A DNA stretch of 58,867 bases from a virus. Taxonomy: Duplodnaviria; Caudoviricetes. The notes under the pieces were generated by a model that saw nothing but the letters and a program-made list of their open reading frames with translations, was not told where the DNA came from and did no database searches. Shown one piece after another: positions 4,128-58,645 of the stretch. Within the stretch, counting starts at the first letter, position 1. Every line of letters begins with the position of its first letter. The stretch covers positions 1 to 58,867 of the IMG/VR virus record IMGVR_UViG_3300049203_000265; one strand, 5' to 3'. The position numbers and the translations under genes are program-made.

Positions 4128-4465
4128 TGTACGATGTGATGGCCTTTTGTTTCGTTCTCGCGTGTCTCGCGATCTGGAAGTACCCGCCGATCCACACCGG
4201 CACGTTCGGGTCCCTCGGACTGGTCGTCATGGCGATCGCGGCAGTCTTCAGCATGGACGACGGCCTGTACGGCAGCCCGGACAGCATCAAGTGGTGCTTC
4301 GTGACGCTCATGGGCGGAGCGGGGCTCGTGATGCTGCACGTGCTGTTCTCCGTGCAGAAGATGCTGCGCCACATGCCGAGGCACGCCTCCGAGGTGCCGC
4401 TGCGCCGGTCCACCGACTACGGTGACTTGGACGACGGGGACCGGTCGCACGGGATGCACGCGTGA
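4124..4465 (+). CDS. membrane protein (holin/antiholin-like, 3 TM)
   Basis: Three hydrophobic segments, hydrophilic tail with RRSTD; coupled to the previous gene. Confidence 0.55.
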   Translation: MMYDVMAFCFVLACLAIWKYPPIHTGTFGSLGLVVMAIAAVFSMDDGLYGSPDSIKWCFVTLMGGAGLVMLHVLFSVQKMLRHMPRHASEVPLRRSTDYGDLDDGDRSHGMHA

Positions 4466-37493: not shown

Positions 37494-37602
37494 ACCGGAG
37501 ACCGAATGGCGGGGTGCCGAGGCAGGTAGCCCGTCGCTCAGCGTATGAGCAGAATTAGGTCGTAGTTCCGGTCGAGCTGGGCATCTCTCGAAACTGCCCA
37601 CC
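37494..37602 (+). ncRNA. candidate structured leader of the modification operon
   Basis: Nested stems ACCGGAG/TTCCGGT, GGCGGG/CCCGTC, GCTCA/TGAGC, then a TGGGCA/TGCCCA hairpin. Confidence 0.45.
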
Positions 37603-37616
37603 AATTCGGAGGAATC

Positions 37617-43999: not shown

Positions 44000-44490
44000 T
44001 GGACAGCTACATAAAAGCGTACGTGCGAGTGCACGTGCACATCGACGCCGGCGCCAGGGTCTGGTGCAAGGGCGAGCAGCTCAAGGTCCACACCTCCGGG
44101 GACGGCACTCTCAAGGTGGTGCTGCCGATCTCGAAGATCCTCTTCAGCTTCGACGACCTGAAGCGCATGGGAGCCCGGTGCGATGTCCAGACGCTCAAAA
44201 CACTCGCGATGGCCGGCGCCGACGCGCGATGGTCTGACGAGCAGGTGGCGCGGCGCGAGAACGGACTTCCGAAGAACGTCTATGTCGCGAATGCACGGAC
44301 CATCCAGCTGGCCATCGCGGCCGGCAAACCTGCCCCGCCCGCGCGCTTCCTGGCGCGCAAGCGAGACCGCATGACGGACGTGTACGCCACCGCCGACGAG
44401 GCCGTTCTGGCCATGCACGAGGAGCGGTGGCGCACGAAGTTCAGCAAGGGACAGTTCGCCAAGACGGGCTACGTGGAGAAAAAGCGATGA
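43999..44490 (+). CDS. hypothetical protein
   Basis: TGATG coupling; codon usage. Confidence 0.65.
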   Translation: MDSYIKAYVRVHVHIDAGARVWCKGEQLKVHTSGDGTLKVVLPISKILFSFDDLKRMGARCDVQTLKTLAMAGADARWSDEQVARRENGLPKNVYVANARTIQLAIAAGKPAPPARFLARKRDRMTDVYATADEAVLAMHEERWRTKFSKGQFAKTGYVEKKR

Positions 44491-44705
44491 GGATCCCCCG
44501 AGCGGTCGCGCACCCGGTCAGGAGCGCGAAGCTACTGTTCAGGCACCTGTACGTGGCGTGGAACTACGCCATGGACCTGCAGCACTTCCGCGCCCTCAGG
44601 CAGCAGAACATGCTGACCGAGCGCGAGCGCAGGTGCTGGGTCGGCCGGCTCGAGACGTGGGAGACCTCGCTCGAGGCCGTCCGCTTCGAGTGGAGGCACC
44701 TGTGA
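44487..44705 (+). CDS. hypothetical protein
   Basis: ATGA overlap; GGAG RBS. Confidence 0.6.
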   Translation: MRIPRAVAHPVRSAKLLFRHLYVAWNYAMDLQHFRALRQQNMLTERERRCWVGRLETWETSLEAVRFEWRHL

Positions 44706-45148
44706 CGGAGTACCTCGTCCTGCACAAACTCGGCAACATGTCGGGTATCTCGGTCGAGCCGGCCGGCGGCACGTACGAGCACCCCACGGAGTGCTGGGCC
44801 CTCGACACCGGCAAGAAGGTGATGTACGCGCGGCGCCGCATCGTGGGCGACCTCGCGACGTTCCACCTCGGCGGCACGTTCGAGTCCAGGGCCCGGTACG
44901 TGATGCCGTACGACGAGCTGTACGCGGTGCTCACGGAGCGCATGGGGCCCTGCGACCGCGTCAAGTACCTTCTGGTCAGGGAGCGCGCGGCACAGACGCC
45001 GTACGTCGGCCTCCGGTCGAGGGGCGAGTTCGCCAGCCGGTCCGCGGACCTGCTACTGTTCACGGTCGGCAAGGCCCTGAAGTTCCTGACGATCGTGCTG
45101 CTCTTCCCCTTCCTGATCATGTGGTTCAACAAGAGGACGCGCCGTTGA
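44702..45148 (+). CDS. hypothetical protein with C-terminal membrane anchor
   Basis: GGAGG RBS; FLTIVLLFPFLIMWF followed by KRTRR. Confidence 0.6.
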   Translation: MTEYLVLHKLGNMSGISVEPAGGTYEHPTECWALDTGKKVMYARRRIVGDLATFHLGGTFESRARYVMPYDELYAVLTERMGPCDRVKYLLVRERAAQTPYVGLRSRGEFASRSADLLLFTVGKALKFLTIVLLFPFLIMWFNKRTRR

Positions 45149-45156
45149 ACGACCTC

Positions 45157-45197
45157 GATCGAAACGTTGTACATCCGGGGCAGGGGCGGTGTACAAT
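45157..45197 (+). promoter_or_regulatory. promoter GATCGAA-N4-TGTACA-N18-TACAAT
   Basis: Repeated motif; would drive the HTH gene and the ncRNA. Confidence 0.75.
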
Positions 45198-45280
45198 ATG
45201 AACTGCAAATCGCTAATGAGGCGTCGCCCACAGCCGCTTTAGCGATCCTCCAGCAAGTGGGCATTTTCCAGGAGAAAGAA

Positions 45281-45784
45281 ATGACCGAAGCAACCCAAAC
45301 CGCCGACGCCGCGGGCGAGGCCCGCAAGCGCGCGGCCGCATCGAACTTCCTCGCCATCGTGCGCGGCCGCCTGCCGCTGATCTTCGTGCACGCCATCCGC
45401 TTCGACGAGGTGGTTTCGAAGATGGGCAACAAGGACGCCGCCGCCAAGTTCGGCACGTCCGTCGGCAAGGTGTTCGACATCCGCAAGGGCCGCAACTTCT
45501 CGTACGTCGACCAGGGCTTCAAGCCGAACGCCGACGACGTGGCCCAGGCCAAGTCGTGGGCCGAGCAGGTCGGCGCGCAGAACGCCAAGGGGCTGACTGC
45601 CAGCGGCGACAAGGACCTGATGCTGAAGATCGTGGGCGAGTACGAGGCGCGCGGCCTCGGGACCGGTGCACAGCGCCCGGCCCGCACGCCCGGCGAGAAA
45701 CAGCCCGCAGCGGCGGCCGCGGGTGCCGGTGGTGAACAGACGCAGGCGGCGGGTGCCAACACCGCCGACGCGCTCCTGAGCTGA
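45281..45784 (+). CDS. HTH-like nucleic-acid-binding protein
   Basis: AGGAGA RBS; NKDAAAKFGTSVGKVFDIRKGRNF; very biased codon usage. Confidence 0.7.
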   Translation: MTEATQTADAAGEARKRAAASNFLAIVRGRLPLIFVHAIRFDEVVSKMGNKDAAAKFGTSVGKVFDIRKGRNFSYVDQGFKPNADDVAQAKSWAEQVGAQNAKGLTASGDKDLMLKIVGEYEARGLGTGAQRPARTPGEKQPAAAAAGAGGEQTQAAGANTADALLS

Positions 45785-45789
45785 ACACG

Positions 45790-46537
45790 CAGGCAGCAAG
45801 AGTAGCCTCCCACTCTTTGTTCGGGGCCGGTCCGTACGGACACCATCCGGGCGCTAAACGAAGGCCGTTGACGAGACGTAAACTCGCCTAGACCTGGGCA
45901 TGTCGACAAAACTGCCCACTTATCTGTTTCGGCCGGAGAGGGGGAGGCGATGGCCCCCGTAAAGGTAAATCGAGGTGTTGCTGCGGCTTGCTGCATTTGT
46001 CGCACCGAACAGGCGCTCGGGCCGAAACAGATAAGTTGCAAGGCCAGTTAAGGTCGCGTTCGTTCCATGTCGCGGCAGTGACGCAGGCCCCAATCGGCGG
46101 CAGATCGTGATGAGAGTTGTCCCGGGCGCATCTCCAATGTGCCGCCAGCCCGGACGGACGTTTGTAGTTGGCTTCAGGCATCAAGTCTCGACAAAGCGGC
46201 AATTCGGCGGAATTAATGCCGTGAAAACGAGAGCCCCCGCCGGGGAAGCATAGGGCGATTTGAGGACGAGCCGGGTTTACTGGTCAACTCTTAAAGTTCC
46301 GAAGAGGGCGGCAGCCCCTGGCGCCTGAGGTTAACTACAAGGGTCCGGAGCGACGGCCGACCGCGGGATGTGAAGCCCTCGCGGAGAGCCGCCGGGCTCT
46401 TGACGAGTTCTGTGGGCCGCTCTAGCTCAGAAAGCTCAGCCGAATTCTAGACAAGGCCGAGTGCGGTAGAGCCCCGGGCTAATAACCCGGTACGTGCGGA
46501 GAGATGGGCCTCCTCCGGAGCGGCCCACAGAGCTTAT
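45790..46537 (+). ncRNA. large structured non-coding RNA (unassigned family)
   Basis: ~760 nt gap in a gene-dense region; three 17-18 bp helices, two with G-U pairs valid only on the + strand. Confidence 0.7.
46414..46527 (+). ncRNA. aberrant tRNA-like cloverleaf, anticodon AAU
   Basis: TAGCTCAG...GGTAGAGC D arm; CCGGG-CTAATAA-CCCGG anticodon arm; no TTC loop. Confidence 0.55.
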
Positions 46538-46549
46538 CGGAGGTCTGTC

Positions 46550-46981
46550 ATGATCAGTCGCAGAGGCCTGCTGGCCGGGTTCGCCGCGAGCGCGGCTGGC
46601 GTTCTGGTGCCGCAAGCGCCGGCCATCGTGCGCAGCACATCGCTCATGCCGGTGCGGCCGCTCGAGGACTTTCTCGTGTACTCCGTCAGCTACCGACATG
46701 TTGGAGTGTTCGGAGACACGTTCGTCGCCCGGGCCTGGTGGCATGCGGCCACCAAACGGTGGTACCAGCCCGTCGCCGAACACGAGTACGACCGTGACAG
46801 ACCCAGCGGGATGTGGATGCGCCGGAACGGCACGTACTTCGCCAGTGACGTCGACGGCTCCGGCGATGGCTGGGAACAGCGCCGCGTCGAAGTGCCGGTG
46901 CTTCGCACCATGGAGCTCTGTGAAGTGAAATTCGGGTCCAGAGGATCCATCGAGATGGTGACAAAGGAGATAGATTTGTGA
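46550..46981 (+). CDS. hypothetical protein with twin-arginine-like N-terminus
   Basis: MISRRGLLAGFAA; GGAGG RBS. Confidence 0.6.
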   Translation: MISRRGLLAGFAASAAGVLVPQAPAIVRSTSLMPVRPLEDFLVYSVSYRHVGVFGDTFVARAWWHAATKRWYQPVAEHEYDRDRPSGMWMRRNGTYFASDVDGSGDGWEQRRVEVPVLRTMELCEVKFGSRGSIEMVTKEIDL

Positions 46982-47505
46982 GAGATCTGATGCTGGACCT
47001 GGAGACGATGGGCGTCCGCCCGACGTCGGCCATCGTGTCGATCGGGGCCGTCATGTTCGACGAGAACGGCCTCGGCTCGGAGTTTTACACCCCGGTCAGT
47101 CTGCAGTCGTGCGTGCGCTTCGGGCTCACCACCGACGCGGACACCGTGAAGTGGTGGGAGACGCAGCCGGAGCTCGTGCGCAACGCGTGGGCGGACGAGC
47201 ACGCTCCCCTCATGGACGTCGCGCTCAAGGCCTTCAACGACTGGTGCGTCAAGAACGGCGTGCAGCGGGTCTGGGGCAACGGCGCCGACTTCGACCCGCC
47301 GATCATCGTCAACGCCTTTCGCGCTCTCGACGCCGAGGCGCCGTGGCCGTGGCACGGGCACCGCTGCTACCGCACGGTGAGGAACATGTTCGACGACCCG
47401 CAGACGCCGCGGACAGGCACGCTCCACCACGCCCTGGACGATGCCAAGTACCAGGCACAGAACCTGCTGGCCATCATGTCGATGAACCGGCTGCACCTCG
47501 GCTAA
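46978..47505 (+). CDS. DEDDh 3'-5' exonuclease/exoribonuclease
   Basis: MLDLETMG, WGNGADFD, H.ALDDAKYQA. Confidence 0.88.
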   Translation: MRDLMLDLETMGVRPTSAIVSIGAVMFDENGLGSEFYTPVSLQSCVRFGLTTDADTVKWWETQPELVRNAWADEHAPLMDVALKAFNDWCVKNGVQRVWGNGADFDPPIIVNAFRALDAEAPWPWHGHRCYRTVRNMFDDPQTPRTGTLHHALDDAKYQAQNLLAIMSMNRLHLG

Positions 47506-47514
47506 GGAGTCCGT

Positions 47515-47736
47515 ATGGCAAAGTTCGCGATGTACCTGGTGAACCTCGGAGAGGGCACTGTCCACGGCTGCAACGACACGGAGCGCATCGGAGCCGTCAT
47601 CGAGGCGGACGAGGACTACGATTCCGACAACTTCCTGATCATCCACGCCACCAACGGCCAGGTACAGCAGTGGCACCTGCCCGCCAACGAGATCGCCGAA
47701 TTGCCGGACCCCGACGAGGCCGCCGACTCCGAATAG
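47515..47736 (+). CDS. small acidic protein
   Basis: AAGGAG RBS; Asp/Glu-rich. Confidence 0.65.
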   Translation: MAKFAMYLVNLGEGTVHGCNDTERIGAVIEADEDYDSDNFLIIHATNGQVQQWHLPANEIAELPDPDEAADSE

Positions 47737-47766
47737 CCCGCCGAGAACGAGGACGATGATTGATTT

Positions 47767-47807
47767 GATCGAAACGGTGTACAGGGAGCACCGGGACGGC
47801 GTACAAT
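47767..47807 (+). promoter_or_regulatory. promoter GATCGAA-N4-TGTACA-N18-TACAAT
   Basis: Repeated motif. Confidence 0.75.
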
Positions 47808-47814
47808 AGTCGAC

Positions 47815-48021
47815 ATGCACATACAGCTAAAGCACGCGGTCAACGTGCGCAGCTCCACGGGGCGGCTCCACATCGTCCTGCGGGGCAAGCAGGTCAACTA
47901 CTCCCGCAAGCGGCTGGACGAGCACCACGTCGAGCACAGATTCAGCGTGGCGCTCCCGAACGGGCAGTTCCTCGAGCACAAGCAGGTGAGCGTGAAGGGC
48001 GCGGTGCCGTCGTGGCTGTGA
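47815..48021 (+). CDS. small basic hypothetical protein
   Basis: Directly after a promoter. Confidence 0.6.
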   Translation: MHIQLKHAVNVRSSTGRLHIVLRGKQVNYSRKRLDEHHVEHRFSVALPNGQFLEHKQVSVKGAVPSWL

Positions 48022-58169: not shown

Positions 58170-58645
58170 AAAACTTATGGTAAACGTTTACGGTAAAACG
58201 AAAAGTTCAATCCGGATAATAACTTAAGTGCGAAACTGCGCCGTGGCGTGCTCTGAGCGGCTCCCGGAGTAGGCAGGGGCGTGTGCAGGGGACCGTGCGA
58301 GTTGTGCATCGCACATCGCACGCGGTGGACGGAAACGTTACCGTAACGTACCGTAACTGCGTGACGGACGGGCTCGGTTTCAGCCAGTTTCTACCCGCGG
58401 CGTCGGCCGAAGCCCGTACACTTAAGTTATTAATTTTGTTGAACTTTAGTATTTACCATATATTTACCATAAATATAATAAAAGTATATAAATGAATATA
58501 TTCCATGATTAGGTCCTATTCAATTGTAATATACAATTTATACTTAAAACCATATATATTCTATTATATAATTAAGTTTTGAAAAGTTATGGTAAACGTA
58601 TGGTAAACCCTAAATATCGTTATAAATTAATAACTTAAGTGCGCG
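58170..58645. repeat. AT-rich region with direct and inverted repeat units (candidate origin/terminal control region)
   Basis: TATGGTAAA...TAATAACTTAAGTG unit at 58175-58232 and 58587-58643, inverted at 58419-58471. Confidence 0.7.

Follow-up and report, generated by a model that had tools for sequence, protein, structure and literature searches.

A covarying pseudoknot joined to an array of predicted long-stem RNA domains in the largest internal gap of a soil phage genome

A non-coding gap between phage genes

Here, we describe the largest internal gap (45785-46549) in the complete 58.9-kb genome of a soil phage, the whole 58,867 nucleotides of which are referred to as the window. The gap is non-coding. 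Between about 45616 and 46651, GC periodicity by codon position is absent, and no internal run of this kind is longer; the remaining internal runs measure 345 nt or less, and all others lie at both genome ends. Open reading frames on the + strand of the gap reach at most 48 amino acids and lack periodicity, and the 48-aa frame in the linker showed no protein conservation when read directly, codon by codon. The GC content of the gap is 0.62-0.66. The original prediction had called this the only large internal non-coding gap, a description that agrees with its being the longest internal run without codon periodicity. The locus, and a second copy of one of its elements elsewhere in the genome, comprise the following features.

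37566-37605, + strand: second, diverged copy of pseudoknot M (model R1 14.5 bits, E 0.034)
45168-45197, + strand: sigma-70-like promoter (TGTACA-N18-TACAAT), with two more sites of this kind elsewhere in the genome
45281-45784, + strand: gene for a conserved 167-aa phage protein, the locus marker in relatives (180 homologues, E≤0.001)
45785-45888, + strand: 3' untranslated spacer from the stop codon to M, without codon periodicity and lying under both metatranscriptome contigs
45889-45918, + strand: pseudoknot M, 30-nt H-type (model R1 35.8 bits, this copy being in the training set)
45918-46036, + strand: domain H1, a closing stem round a branched interior, its first base being the last base of M
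46037-46154, + strand: linker with its own hairpins, together with the start of H2 the part best kept in the closest relative
46155-46347, + strand: domain H2, an 18-bp core stem with a multi-arm interior of about 143 nt (predicted fold)
46405-46535, + strand: domain H3, an 18-19-bp stem with a cloverleaf-like three-arm junction (predicted fold)
46550-46981, + strand: gene for a 143-aa protein with an N-terminus resembling a twin-arginine signal, without Pfam or PHROG family
46978-47505, + strand: gene for a DEDDh exonuclease of the Rv2179c-like 3'-5' exoribonuclease family (PF16473, E 1e-46; phrog_255)

A promoter had been placed upstream of the gap at 45157, and a promoter-like site is indeed present at 45168-45197; its pattern matches three times in the genome against zero expected from 100 shuffles. 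Judged from its sequence, this promoter is the likely source of a transcript through the gap. The segments that come after H1, H2, and H3 (AAGUUGCAAGG, GGAGCGACGG, and AUCGGAGG, respectively) did not qualify as intrinsic terminators, and no terminator-like site was found on the + strand in 44000-48000.

The 45281 protein consists of a weakly HTH-like core, a disordered linker, and a conserved C-terminal ..ADxLLS, and its predicted structure has a mean pLDDT of 70.9. Its closest homologues have 67-79% identity. Pfam and PHROG searches assigned it to no family, and its fold had no PDB match at E≤0.001. The HTH resemblance proposed earlier is present but weak, with a best Foldseek E of 0.29, a best VIA Z of 3.6, and a best Atlas score of 0.84, which is under the trust level. 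On the other side of the gap, the 46550 gene has a GGAGG ribosome-binding site at 46540-46544, 4 nt from the end of H3. The predicted DEDDh exonuclease was recovered as the Rv2179c-like gene listed above, which keeps its synteny with the RNA slot in relatives, as read directly in L006, L020, and L028.

A pseudoknot shared by many phages

Pseudoknot M consists of stem S1, in which 45889-45892 face 45903-45906 (UAGA/UCGA, three of four pairs), stem S2, in which UGGGCA at 45895-45900 pairs with UGCCCA at 45913-45918, and an A-rich loop L3 (CAAAAC). The original prediction had left out M, the one element of the gap conserved across phages. Its pattern matches once within the window and never in shuffles, and the family consensus CCUGRGCAYG ... 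AAACUGCYCA, with S2 as UGRGCA/UGCYCA, is found at 45893-45918. M is a genuine base-paired element. Across 99 copies, pairing amounts to 93.6% of its cells (76.2% in shuffles) and covariation scores 0.464 (0.144 in shuffles), and none of 500 shuffles attained either value. The R/Y covariation of S2 is apparent in column pair 15-36, which is A-U in 78 copies and G-C in 17, while S1 cells are 90.6% paired and all three of its pairs change on both sides. Furthermore, the three nucleotides 5' of CCUG pair with the three 3' of CAYG in 109 of 138 copies, compared to about 12 of 138 after shuffling. A reading of M as a sigma-54 or sigma-70 promoter was rejected; the spacing is unfit on direct reading and the covariation argues for pairing.

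M covaries strongly and was recovered from at least 119 IMG/VR stretches; in many phages it lies between co-directional genes, 0-19 nt after the stop codon in 63 of 136 cases and 10-39 nt before the start codon in 54 of 141. Examples precede scaffold genes, capsid genes, and a tRNA, and the second copy in this genome, 15 nt ahead of the GTG of a carbamoyltransferase gene, occupies this usual context. The listed hosts of the phages are Actinobacteria, Cyanobacteria, Firmicutes, and Proteobacteria, and M also occurs in crAss-like phages and Microviridae. Rfam has no M family and gave no match in 11 M-bearing loci. The full-text matches listed for its sequence were primers and unrelated sequences, and among the matches listed for new classes of phage ribozymes or pseudoknots nothing fitted M.

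In this phage and in about half of the copies next to 45281-like genes, M is joined to a long hairpin, whereas 129 copies from other phages showed no enrichment of long stems after M as compared to controls. In the 45281 family, 40-190 nt separate the stop codon from M and 0-3 nt separate M from the hairpin, so that the position of M is tied more closely to the downstream element than to the stop codon upstream.

The nearest known element is the coremin exonuclease-resistant RNA (xrRNA) of plant viruses, which we cite as an analogue without claiming homology. Coremin, or xrRNA-C, is described in beny-, cucumo-, and other plant RNA viruses, with a first hairpin (hp1) loop of 4-6 nt (YGAD/YGNNAD), a conserved spacer GUUAAACUAC of which A16-A20 are essential, and an action on eukaryotic Xrn1 and scanning ribosomes (Dilweg et al. 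2019, PMC6546385; Dilweg et al. 2023, PMC10520033). Coremin resembles M in its first hairpin of 3-5 bp, in part in its A-rich spacer, which has UAAACU in common with NUAAACUGC of M, and in a variable second hairpin (hp2) that follows right after, as H1 begins at the last base of M. Set against (N)NAAACUGC of M, AAACU is common and A20/C21 are replaced by G/C. A second hairpin directly after M was also found in L007, L010, L014, L019, L025, and L029, but not in the 129 other-phage copies. Unlike the short coremin loop, that of M is a 10-nt CCUGRGCAYG, six bases of which are Watson-Crick paired with UGCYCA, and most M copies lack hp2.

It is tempting to take the analogy further and to regard M as the bacterial-virus counterpart of eukaryotic xrRNAs, fused in coremin style to an obligatory second hairpin. 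M would then halt host decay at 45889-45918, and an M-H1-H2-H3 RNA of about 640 nt would accumulate as a non-coding RNA resistant to decay, like a flaviviral sfRNA, its domains, including H3, acting as a sponge for dsRNA sensors, host RNases, or defence nucleases directed at tRNAs. We consider this a long shot.

Long-stem domains and their counterparts in relatives

The three long helices of the original prediction were recovered in both the MFE and the centroid fold, each closing a predicted multibranch interior. H1 (45918-45934/46020-46036) is a perfect helix of 17 bp. H2 (46162-46179/46323-46340) has 18 bp with three G-U pairs and is extendable to 46155/46347 with further G-U pairs and one mismatch. 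H3 (46405-46422/46518-46535) has 18 bp with two G-U pairs, or 19 bp with three in the helix scan. Such stems are not expected by chance, as mononucleotide shuffles of the gap gave one stem of at least 17 bp in 1 of 300 cases and two in none, against the three observed. The folding energy is -344.6 kcal/mol (z -4.0) on the + strand and -319.8 kcal/mol (z -3.4) on the - strand (20 shuffles each). On the - strand H1 is the same, H3 shrinks to 14 bp, and H2 is absent, in line with the proposed pairing at the RNA level on the + strand. The arms of two further pseudoknots proposed for the gap were found in the sequence, and the only alignable relative, L010, stops short of their 3' partners; the GGGGG/CCCCC hairpin is retained there with one compensatory change, in the outer pair.

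Three large inverted repeats in the largest non-coding region, beside a weakly HTH-like gene and within the replication and nucleotide-metabolism half of the genome, could also act as DNA, i.e., as cruciforms or protein-binding dyads of an origin or regulatory region bound by this neighbour, and H1 is a perfect palindrome-type repeat at the DNA level. However, the G-U pairs of H2 and H3 become A-C mismatches on the opposite strand, the adjoining M is an interleaved pseudoknot and as such impossible for duplex DNA, and the hairpin of L007 is fused to a tRNA gene. A replication origin was rejected, as the gap contains no iterons, its direct repeats (11-13 nt) being limited to two copies each, and lacks an A+T-rich stretch for unwinding. 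We thus regard a role as DNA as very improbable.

The domains belong to none of the known RNA classes that were searched. Rfam 15 gave no match at the gathering threshold in the whole window and nothing in 20 relatives' loci. At E≤10, the sole match in 45600-46700 was mir-942 on the - strand, which corresponds to the H1 hairpin and scored 21.6 bits where 100 are needed. The earlier statement that the RNA is not a tmRNA, RNase P, or group I/II intron therefore stands and extends to GOLLD, ROOL, known ribozymes and riboswitches, and other Rfam families; ARAGORN called no tRNA or tmRNA in the window. A retron msr-msd was rejected, as the genome has no RVT_1 match, and the linker is not a pseudogene of the exonuclease N-terminus, with which it shares just an 11-nt match that is at chance level in unrelated loci.

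H3 comes closest to a tRNA. Three arms lie inside its stem (MFE 46405-46535) with cloverleaf spacings of 2/1/6/0, and it carries the blocks UAGCUCAG and GGUAGAGC and a 5-bp arm with a 7-nt loop. Yet its 11-nt loop AGAUGGGCCUC lacks the T-loop motif GUUCRAnnC, ARAGORN was negative at default and lowered thresholds and also with the 34-nt insert skipped, and the Rfam model RF00005 also failed to match at E≤10. When H1-H3 were compared locally with 11 tRNAs (nine from relatives, two from other phage loci), similarity did not exceed that of shuffles (H3 p ~0.18).

Other loci with a 45281-like gene hold in the same slot either long-stem domains of unrelated sequence or tRNA genes. The number of such domains per locus ranges from 0 to 3, the gap after the gene from roughly 150 to about 1000 nt, and L010 alone among the relatives shares sequence with the gap. 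With one mismatch allowed, 10 of 24 related loci have a stem of at least 17 bp in the 450 nt that follow the gene, against 5 of 202 control windows (~17-fold), and the other 14 loci lack one; this cut-off was chosen because 14 bp, reached by 17 of the 24 loci and by 69 of the 202 controls, fails to discriminate. The arrangement itself recurs at the locus, where the long stem begins at most 10 nt after the end of M. Of 15 M copies, four (window, L007, L019, and L029) are followed by contiguous stems of 17-23 bp and three more (L010, L014, and L025) by contiguous stems of 9-10 bp, which lengthen to 22 bp in L010 and 17 bp in L014 if one mismatch is allowed. The hairpins of the relatives end 15-50 nt ahead of the next start codon. 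In L007 the hairpin abuts a tRNA-Pro gene at 4224, base to base, and real tRNA genes occupy the slot of L007, L011, and L023. The relative Xp15 infects Xanthomonas.

Positions 1073-1205 of L010 align with window 46085-46218 at 71-72% identity, and the H1 orthologue at L010 902-1037 has 5 of 32 predicted pairs changed on both sides. When the hairpins of L006 and L028 were compared arm by arm, at least four pairs showed compensatory change. The proposed covariation check thus yields stems kept by compensatory substitution in two orthologous pairs, which as far as sequence comparison can tell places the long helices under selection. IMG/VR single-protein scans with the 45281 and 46550 proteins gave no more close relatives, the 21-nt linker pattern matched no stretch, the genome-contig search added one locus (L156, a duplicate of L011), and the DNA runs X20 and X22 held no variants of the gap. 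Directly after M, L011 and L156 have a sequence that looks hammerhead-like by eye (GCAUUA-CUGAUGA-GGCU..AGCC-GAA-ACC-GAAA-GGU-A-UAAUGC), without an Rfam hammerhead hit at E≤1; no such core was found in the window.

The original prediction of one multi-domain RNA of about 760 nt did not hold, given that no sequence is shared outside L010 and that gap length and domain number vary. Because the slot in relatives varies in stem number, sequence, and tRNA content, the gap is, on comparative grounds, a modular, fast-evolving array and not one conserved 760-nt RNA. Such full turnover between 0-3 hairpins, tRNAs, or the hammerhead-like core of L011, in gaps of such different length, would also be expected of evolutionary debris. 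In that case the slot would accept insertions such as tRNA genes, ribozyme-like units, and hairpin elements, and the long stems would be tolerated but unused remains of tRNA genes in decay or of small insertions with inverted repeats; tRNA-like blocks without a T-loop in H3 would fit a decayed tRNA gene. We consider this rather improbable, however, as compensatory substitutions maintain the stems in two independent pairs, and as the stems are perfect or near-perfect across 17-27 bp and enriched at the locus over control windows. A MITE-like element was rejected in particular; apart from their own partners, the arms have no match in the 58.9-kb genome, and direct reading revealed no direct repeats or target-site duplications flanking the stems.

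Cutting and protection of the surrounding messages

Of the readings of this array, we tentatively favour, with somewhat less than even confidence, a co-transcribed cis-acting module for RNA processing and stability, in which the long stems would be cut and M would cap an RNA end. A + strand transcript from the 45168 promoter would run from the 45281 gene through the whole gap into the 46550 and exonuclease genes. The closing stems of 17-19 bp would offer double-stranded RNA targets, for which host RNase III is the obvious candidate, and cutting them would split off an abundant upstream message from the cistrons that follow. The new RNA end would receive a mechanical cap in M, and the downstream message would begin with a structured 5' end left by H3, which ends 4 nt ahead of the ribosome-binding site. 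The excised interiors might persist as by-products.

RNase III processing stems are known from T7 early and late mRNA sites and from the stems flanking 16S and 23S rRNA. The stems of the gap resemble them as long, flank-formed duplexes in a putative polycistronic transcript that are kept while their sequence drifts. Extended flank-formed duplexes are present at contiguous lengths of 17-19 bp, which is rather short for a substrate that RNase III cuts efficiently. In T7, each site is one irregular hairpin of about 60 nt that lacks a large branched interior, whereas the stems here enclose such interiors, and cleavage at them is proposed by analogy. Neither a simple barrier nor an RNase III site needs branched interiors of 80-145 nt, which counts against the processing module, as do the shortness of the stems and the 14 of 24 related loci that lack a stem of at least 17 bp.

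Contigs from RNA runs cover 45734-45916 (X23, depth 9.4) and 45665-45848 (X24, depth 4.6) and are the only ones on 44900-47600. Neither run covers 45917-46854, which leaves H1-H3 outside the contigs and counts against the processing module, although such a hole proves nothing by itself. The X23 contig ends 2 nt short of the last base of M, a weak hint in favour of the processing module, given that both runs were selected for holding words of the stretch, that contigs cannot define RNA ends, and that DNA carry-over is possible. A capping of 3' ends by M would fit this hint, whereas coremin, the closest analogue, blocks 5'-3' decay instead.

Alternatively, the three domains could each encode a stable small RNA of about 120-190 nt that acts in trans once released at the stems, with H3 serving, by its likeness to tRNA, as a mimic or decoy that engages a defence nuclease or a host enzyme handling tRNAs. 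The interior of every stem has several arms, H3 has a cloverleaf with tRNA-like junction spacing, tRNA genes take the slot in three relatives, and the syntenic exonuclease gene is RNase T-like. Conservation of part of the H1 interior and of the linker in L010 likewise hints at more than a role in cis. T4 species 1 and 2 RNAs are stable small RNAs co-transcribed with phage tRNA clusters, and YrlA is a bacterial Y RNA-like RNA with a long stem and a tRNA-like domain. Both parallel the locus in that hairpin-closed or tRNA-like RNAs share a slot with tRNA genes, and H3 resembles YrlA in its long terminal stem and cloverleaf-like body. A Y RNA or YrlA acting with Ro was nevertheless rejected, as there is no Rfam match, no Ro/TROVE gene in the phage, and no T-loop. 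The lack of such a partner also weighs against stable small RNAs in general, as do the failure of ARAGORN and Rfam to call H3 a tRNA, the similarity to tRNAs at the level of shuffles, the wholly different interiors of long-stem domains between relatives, and the position of H1-H3 outside the two RNA contigs. We therefore consider this explanation unlikely, though a serious contender. The proposal of a novel ncRNA or of a precursor cut at its long helices survives in its second part, since the base-to-base abutment of hairpin and tRNA in L007 keeps cutting at these helices under consideration; a single conserved RNA does not agree with the data.

Phage gene expression is usually explained via promoters and terminators, and punctuation at the RNA level has been detailed mainly for T7 and lambda. 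The array described here, if its predicted folds form, probably shapes the cutting and protection of the surrounding messages. Its design, with M joined straight to long-stem domains, mirrors the hp1-spacer-hp2 arrangement of plant-virus exonuclease-resistant RNAs. The locus is a compact test bed that brings together a single promoter, a single pseudoknot, three stems, and two flanking genes. Should the domains prove to be stable RNAs, phage small RNAs would gain a class located at the tRNA positions of relatives. Should M block bacterial RNases, it would offer a portable part for stabilising RNA and represent a new principle of phage message punctuation.

The non-coding gap and its neighbouring genes

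The window represents one entire IMG/VR virus record of 58,867 bp (completeness estimate 100%), with nearly all genes on the + strand. It encodes structural and packaging proteins (terminase, portal, major head, tape measure, tail fibre) as well as a Prim-Pol primase, a family A DNA polymerase, a helicase, a ligase and a carbamoyltransferase. The genes on either side of the gap have a third-codon-position GC of 0.8-1.0, and between about 45616 and 46651 codon-position GC periodicity is absent. Nowhere else inside the genome is a run without periodicity as long, all others being at most 345 nt or located at the genome ends, in agreement with the original prediction of a single large non-coding gap. 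Its three long closing helices were found where that prediction had placed them:

45918-45934/46020-46036, + strand: H1
46162-46179/46323-46340, + strand: H2
46405-46422/46518-46535, + strand: H3

All three occur in the MFE as well as in the centroid fold and enclose branched interiors. Among 300 shuffles of the gap, one contained a single stem of at least 17 bp and none contained two, as compared to three observed. Folding is stronger for the + strand than for the - strand (-344.6 vs -319.8 kcal/mol), and the G-U pairs in H2 and H3 vanish on the latter, in line with the proposal that these pairs work on the + strand only. Rfam returned no match at gathering score; at E<=10 the sole hit was a meaningless miRNA-hairpin match on H1.

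Several known kinds of element were rejected for this region. H3 has a cloverleaf-like fold whose junction spacing and D-arm blocks resemble those of a tRNA. It is not a tRNA, as it has no T-loop, ARAGORN and the Rfam tRNA model were negative, and in a comparison with 11 tRNAs, taken from relatives and from other phage loci, it scored no higher than shuffles. A retron, a Y RNA and a replication origin were dismissed because the genome has no reverse transcriptase and no Ro/TROVE gene, and the gap has neither iterons nor an A+T-rich stretch. The arms of H1-H3 have no further copies anywhere in the genome, which excludes a MITE. At 58217-58641, in the right genome end, two long inverted repeats (58217-58232/58418-58432 and 58419-58436/58623-58641; 15-19 bp, loops of about 187 nt) adjoin each other; this end has 42% G+C and may be a terminal or origin region.

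The 45281 gene preceding the gap was originally described as HTH-like. A helical core is confidently predicted for its protein (pLDDT about 90 at residues 31-120), its likeness to HTH folds being weak. The only cultured relatives found via this protein are Xanthomonas phage Xp15 and some Acinetobacter phages, with 43-46% identity across 41% of its length. The C-terminus of the family (window 45281-45784; homologue alignment A1) carries a conserved A-D-x-L-L-S/G tail behind a disordered Ala/Gly-rich linker, and several homologues have an extra hydrophobic, signal-like N-terminus. The gene 3' of H3 (46550-46981), for which no Pfam or PHROG family was found, has the N-terminus MISRRGLLAGFAASAAG, similar to a twin-arginine export signal.

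Pseudoknot M

Relatives were collected through the conserved 45281 protein (180 homologues, alignment A1, and their loci). Sequences 3' of their 45281-like genes have almost nothing in common with the gap, which is not a single conserved large RNA. The original interpretation holds in part: the region acts at the RNA level, is listed in none of the catalogues searched, and may be processed at the stems. The exception is a ~27-nt block (45893-45918 in the window), whose 3' edge lies exactly at the start of a long hairpin. This block marks a pseudoknot, M, that had previously been missed, with the following parts:

S1: 3-5 bp
L1: CC
S2: UGRGCA/UGCYCA
L2: YG
L3: A-rich (NNAAAC)

A degenerate pattern for M matches in at least 119 IMG/VR stretches, about the number that we estimate the pattern alone would find by chance. 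Chance is nevertheless excluded by pairing and covariation at positions that the pattern left free. The base 3' of CUGC co-varies with R of CUGRGCA, and the 3 nt before CCUG pair with the 3 nt after CAYG in 109 of 138 distinct copies, versus about 12 of 138 after shuffling. In an alignment of 99 sequences, 93.6% of the cells of the two interleaved helices are paired (76.2% shuffled) with a covariation score of 0.464 (0.144 shuffled); none of 500 shuffles reached either value, and pairing falls to 26-44% in slid controls. M is therefore an H-type pseudoknot. The gap is a modular array with M at its head.

In phages with such listed hosts as Arthrobacter, Mycobacterium, Nostoc, Synechococcus, Paracoccus and Lactobacillus, M sits in spacers that carry no annotation, and it is present too in crAss-like phages and one microvirus. 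Three records illustrate its usual settings: it lies 8 nt past a gene and 184 nt ahead of tRNA-Gln in phage Labelle, ahead of the genes for scaffold and major head in phage AQ113, and ahead of the capsid region in the microvirus. Spacing from stop codon to M is 0-19 nt in 63 of 136 cases, and from M to start codon 10-39 nt in 54 of 141. A covariance model of M found no copy ahead of H2 or H3 and revealed a second, diverged copy in the window:

37566-37605: M copy 2 (S1 UCGAG/CUCGA, S2 UGGGCA/UGCCCA), 3' end of a 124-nt structured leader, 15 nt 5' of the GTG of the Nol-like carbamoyltransferase gene

At five loci (L066, L112, L127, L131, L142), M precedes small genes beginning MPxYEY or M(F/Y)EY and ends in UGCUCC-UU. 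Its CUCCUU is complementary to an AAGGAG RBS 8-12 nt 3', by which S2 formation and RBS masking would be mutually exclusive, a switch-like layout.

Long stems at the 45281 locus

In the 45281 family, M either precedes an RBS (copy 2 of the window, both copies of L018) or joins a long stem. Contiguous stems starting at most 10 nt from the end of M are as follows.

Contiguous stem after M, by locus
Window: 17 bp
L007: 23 bp
L019: 18 bp
L029: 20 bp
L010: 10 bp
L014: 9 bp
L025: 9 bp

With one mismatch allowed, the stem extends to 22 bp in L010 and 17 bp in L014. Stems following 129 M copies from other phages are no longer than those in control windows. Long stems without M occur at the loci L006, L017, L028 and L030 of the 45281 family, the last with three consecutive long-stem domains as in the window. 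Helices of at least 17 bp (one mismatch allowed, span 60-280 nt) were found within 450 nt 3' of the 45281-like gene at 10 of 24 loci, one of which (L016) may be inside a gene, versus 5 of 202 windows taken elsewhere in these loci. The long-stem domains have no sequence in common, and most contain two or three arms. Pairing is under selection in both alignable orthologous pairs: 5 of 32 predicted pairs are altered on both sides between the window and L010, two of them in the closing stem of H1, as are at least four pairs in the 19-24-bp stem of L006 and L028.

Real tRNA genes occupy the same slot in L007, L011 and L023. In L007, a 137-nt hairpin ends at 4223 and tRNA-Pro begins at 4224; the hairpin is thus part of a tRNA precursor. 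L007 5033-5111 and L023 4071-4147 are tRNAs according to Rfam (45.6 and 54.9 bits) and negative by ARAGORN; the anticodon region is enlarged in both, so these may be phage tRNAs that carry an intron or are aberrant. L011 contains a textbook-looking candidate with all core bases directly 3' of M, and Rfam reported no hammerhead on this locus at E<=1:

2422-2475 of L011: candidate hammerhead core, stems GCAUUA/UAAUGC, GGCU/AGCC and ACC/GGU, GUA where the cleavage site is expected

The word CUUAUAA occurs three times in L011, up to the tRNA-Pro gene. The sequence of 2422-2475 is identical in L156, a phage-like contig in a MAG labelled Nitrososphaerota archaeon and the sole match in the genome collection, and the sequence 3' of the 45281-like gene of L156 matches metagenome locus L011. 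L156 probably derives from a phage and ended up in an archaeal MAG through binning.

Transcription and a proposed cis-acting cassette

45168: promoter-like site TGTACA-N18-TACAAT, GATCGAAACG box upstream

Sister sites of the same type (TGTACA-N17/18-TACAAT) lie at 47778 and 53881, and GATCGAAACG precedes those at 45168 and 47778. The three sites belong to a putative promoter family of the phage's own. No terminator-like site exists on the + strand in 44000-48000, and the gap hairpins were accordingly rejected as an intrinsic terminator. In 22 soil DNA runs, half or more of the words sampled from the stretch were present, and two rhizosphere metatranscriptome runs contained a small part of it. 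Against 44900-47600, the RNA runs yielded one identical contig each (45734-45916; 45665-45848) and one poor partial match. The contigs span the 3' part of the 45281 gene and the spacer as far as M, with one contig ending 2 nt short of the last base of M. Because the runs were picked for containing words of the stretch, ends cannot be defined from contigs and DNA may have been carried over, they hint only weakly at an abundant upstream message that may end at M.

The observations best support a co-transcribed cis-acting cassette, in which the long duplexes would be cleavage sites, M would form the end cap, and the downstream message would be left with a structured 5' end. Such a cassette would account for the fixed M-hairpin junction, the hairpins just 5' of the next RBS, the retention of pairing without retention of sequence, and the tRNA-precursor context in L007. 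It leaves unexplained the size and branching of the interiors and the conservation with L010 of the linker between H1 and H2 and of part of the H1 interior, which keeps alive the alternative that the domains give rise to stable small RNAs.

Among described elements, M and H1 together come nearest to the coremin xrRNA of plant viruses. Coremin comprises a 3-5-bp hairpin and the spacer GUUAAACUAC, of which AACUA is essential, and requires a second hairpin of variable sequence directly 3' (PMC6546385; PMC10520033). A different plant-virus xrRNA is the subject of PMC11702639. M resembles coremin in stem size, in part of the spacer (UAAACU) and, within the 45281 family, in the abutting second hairpin. 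It differs in its loop and in forming a Watson-Crick pseudoknot of 6 bp. We regard this likeness as a working analogy, not as membership. New here are the fusion of M to long stems and the arraying of long-stem, cloverleaf-like domains. We propose that the gap belongs with structured intercistronic processing and stability elements, a known kind.
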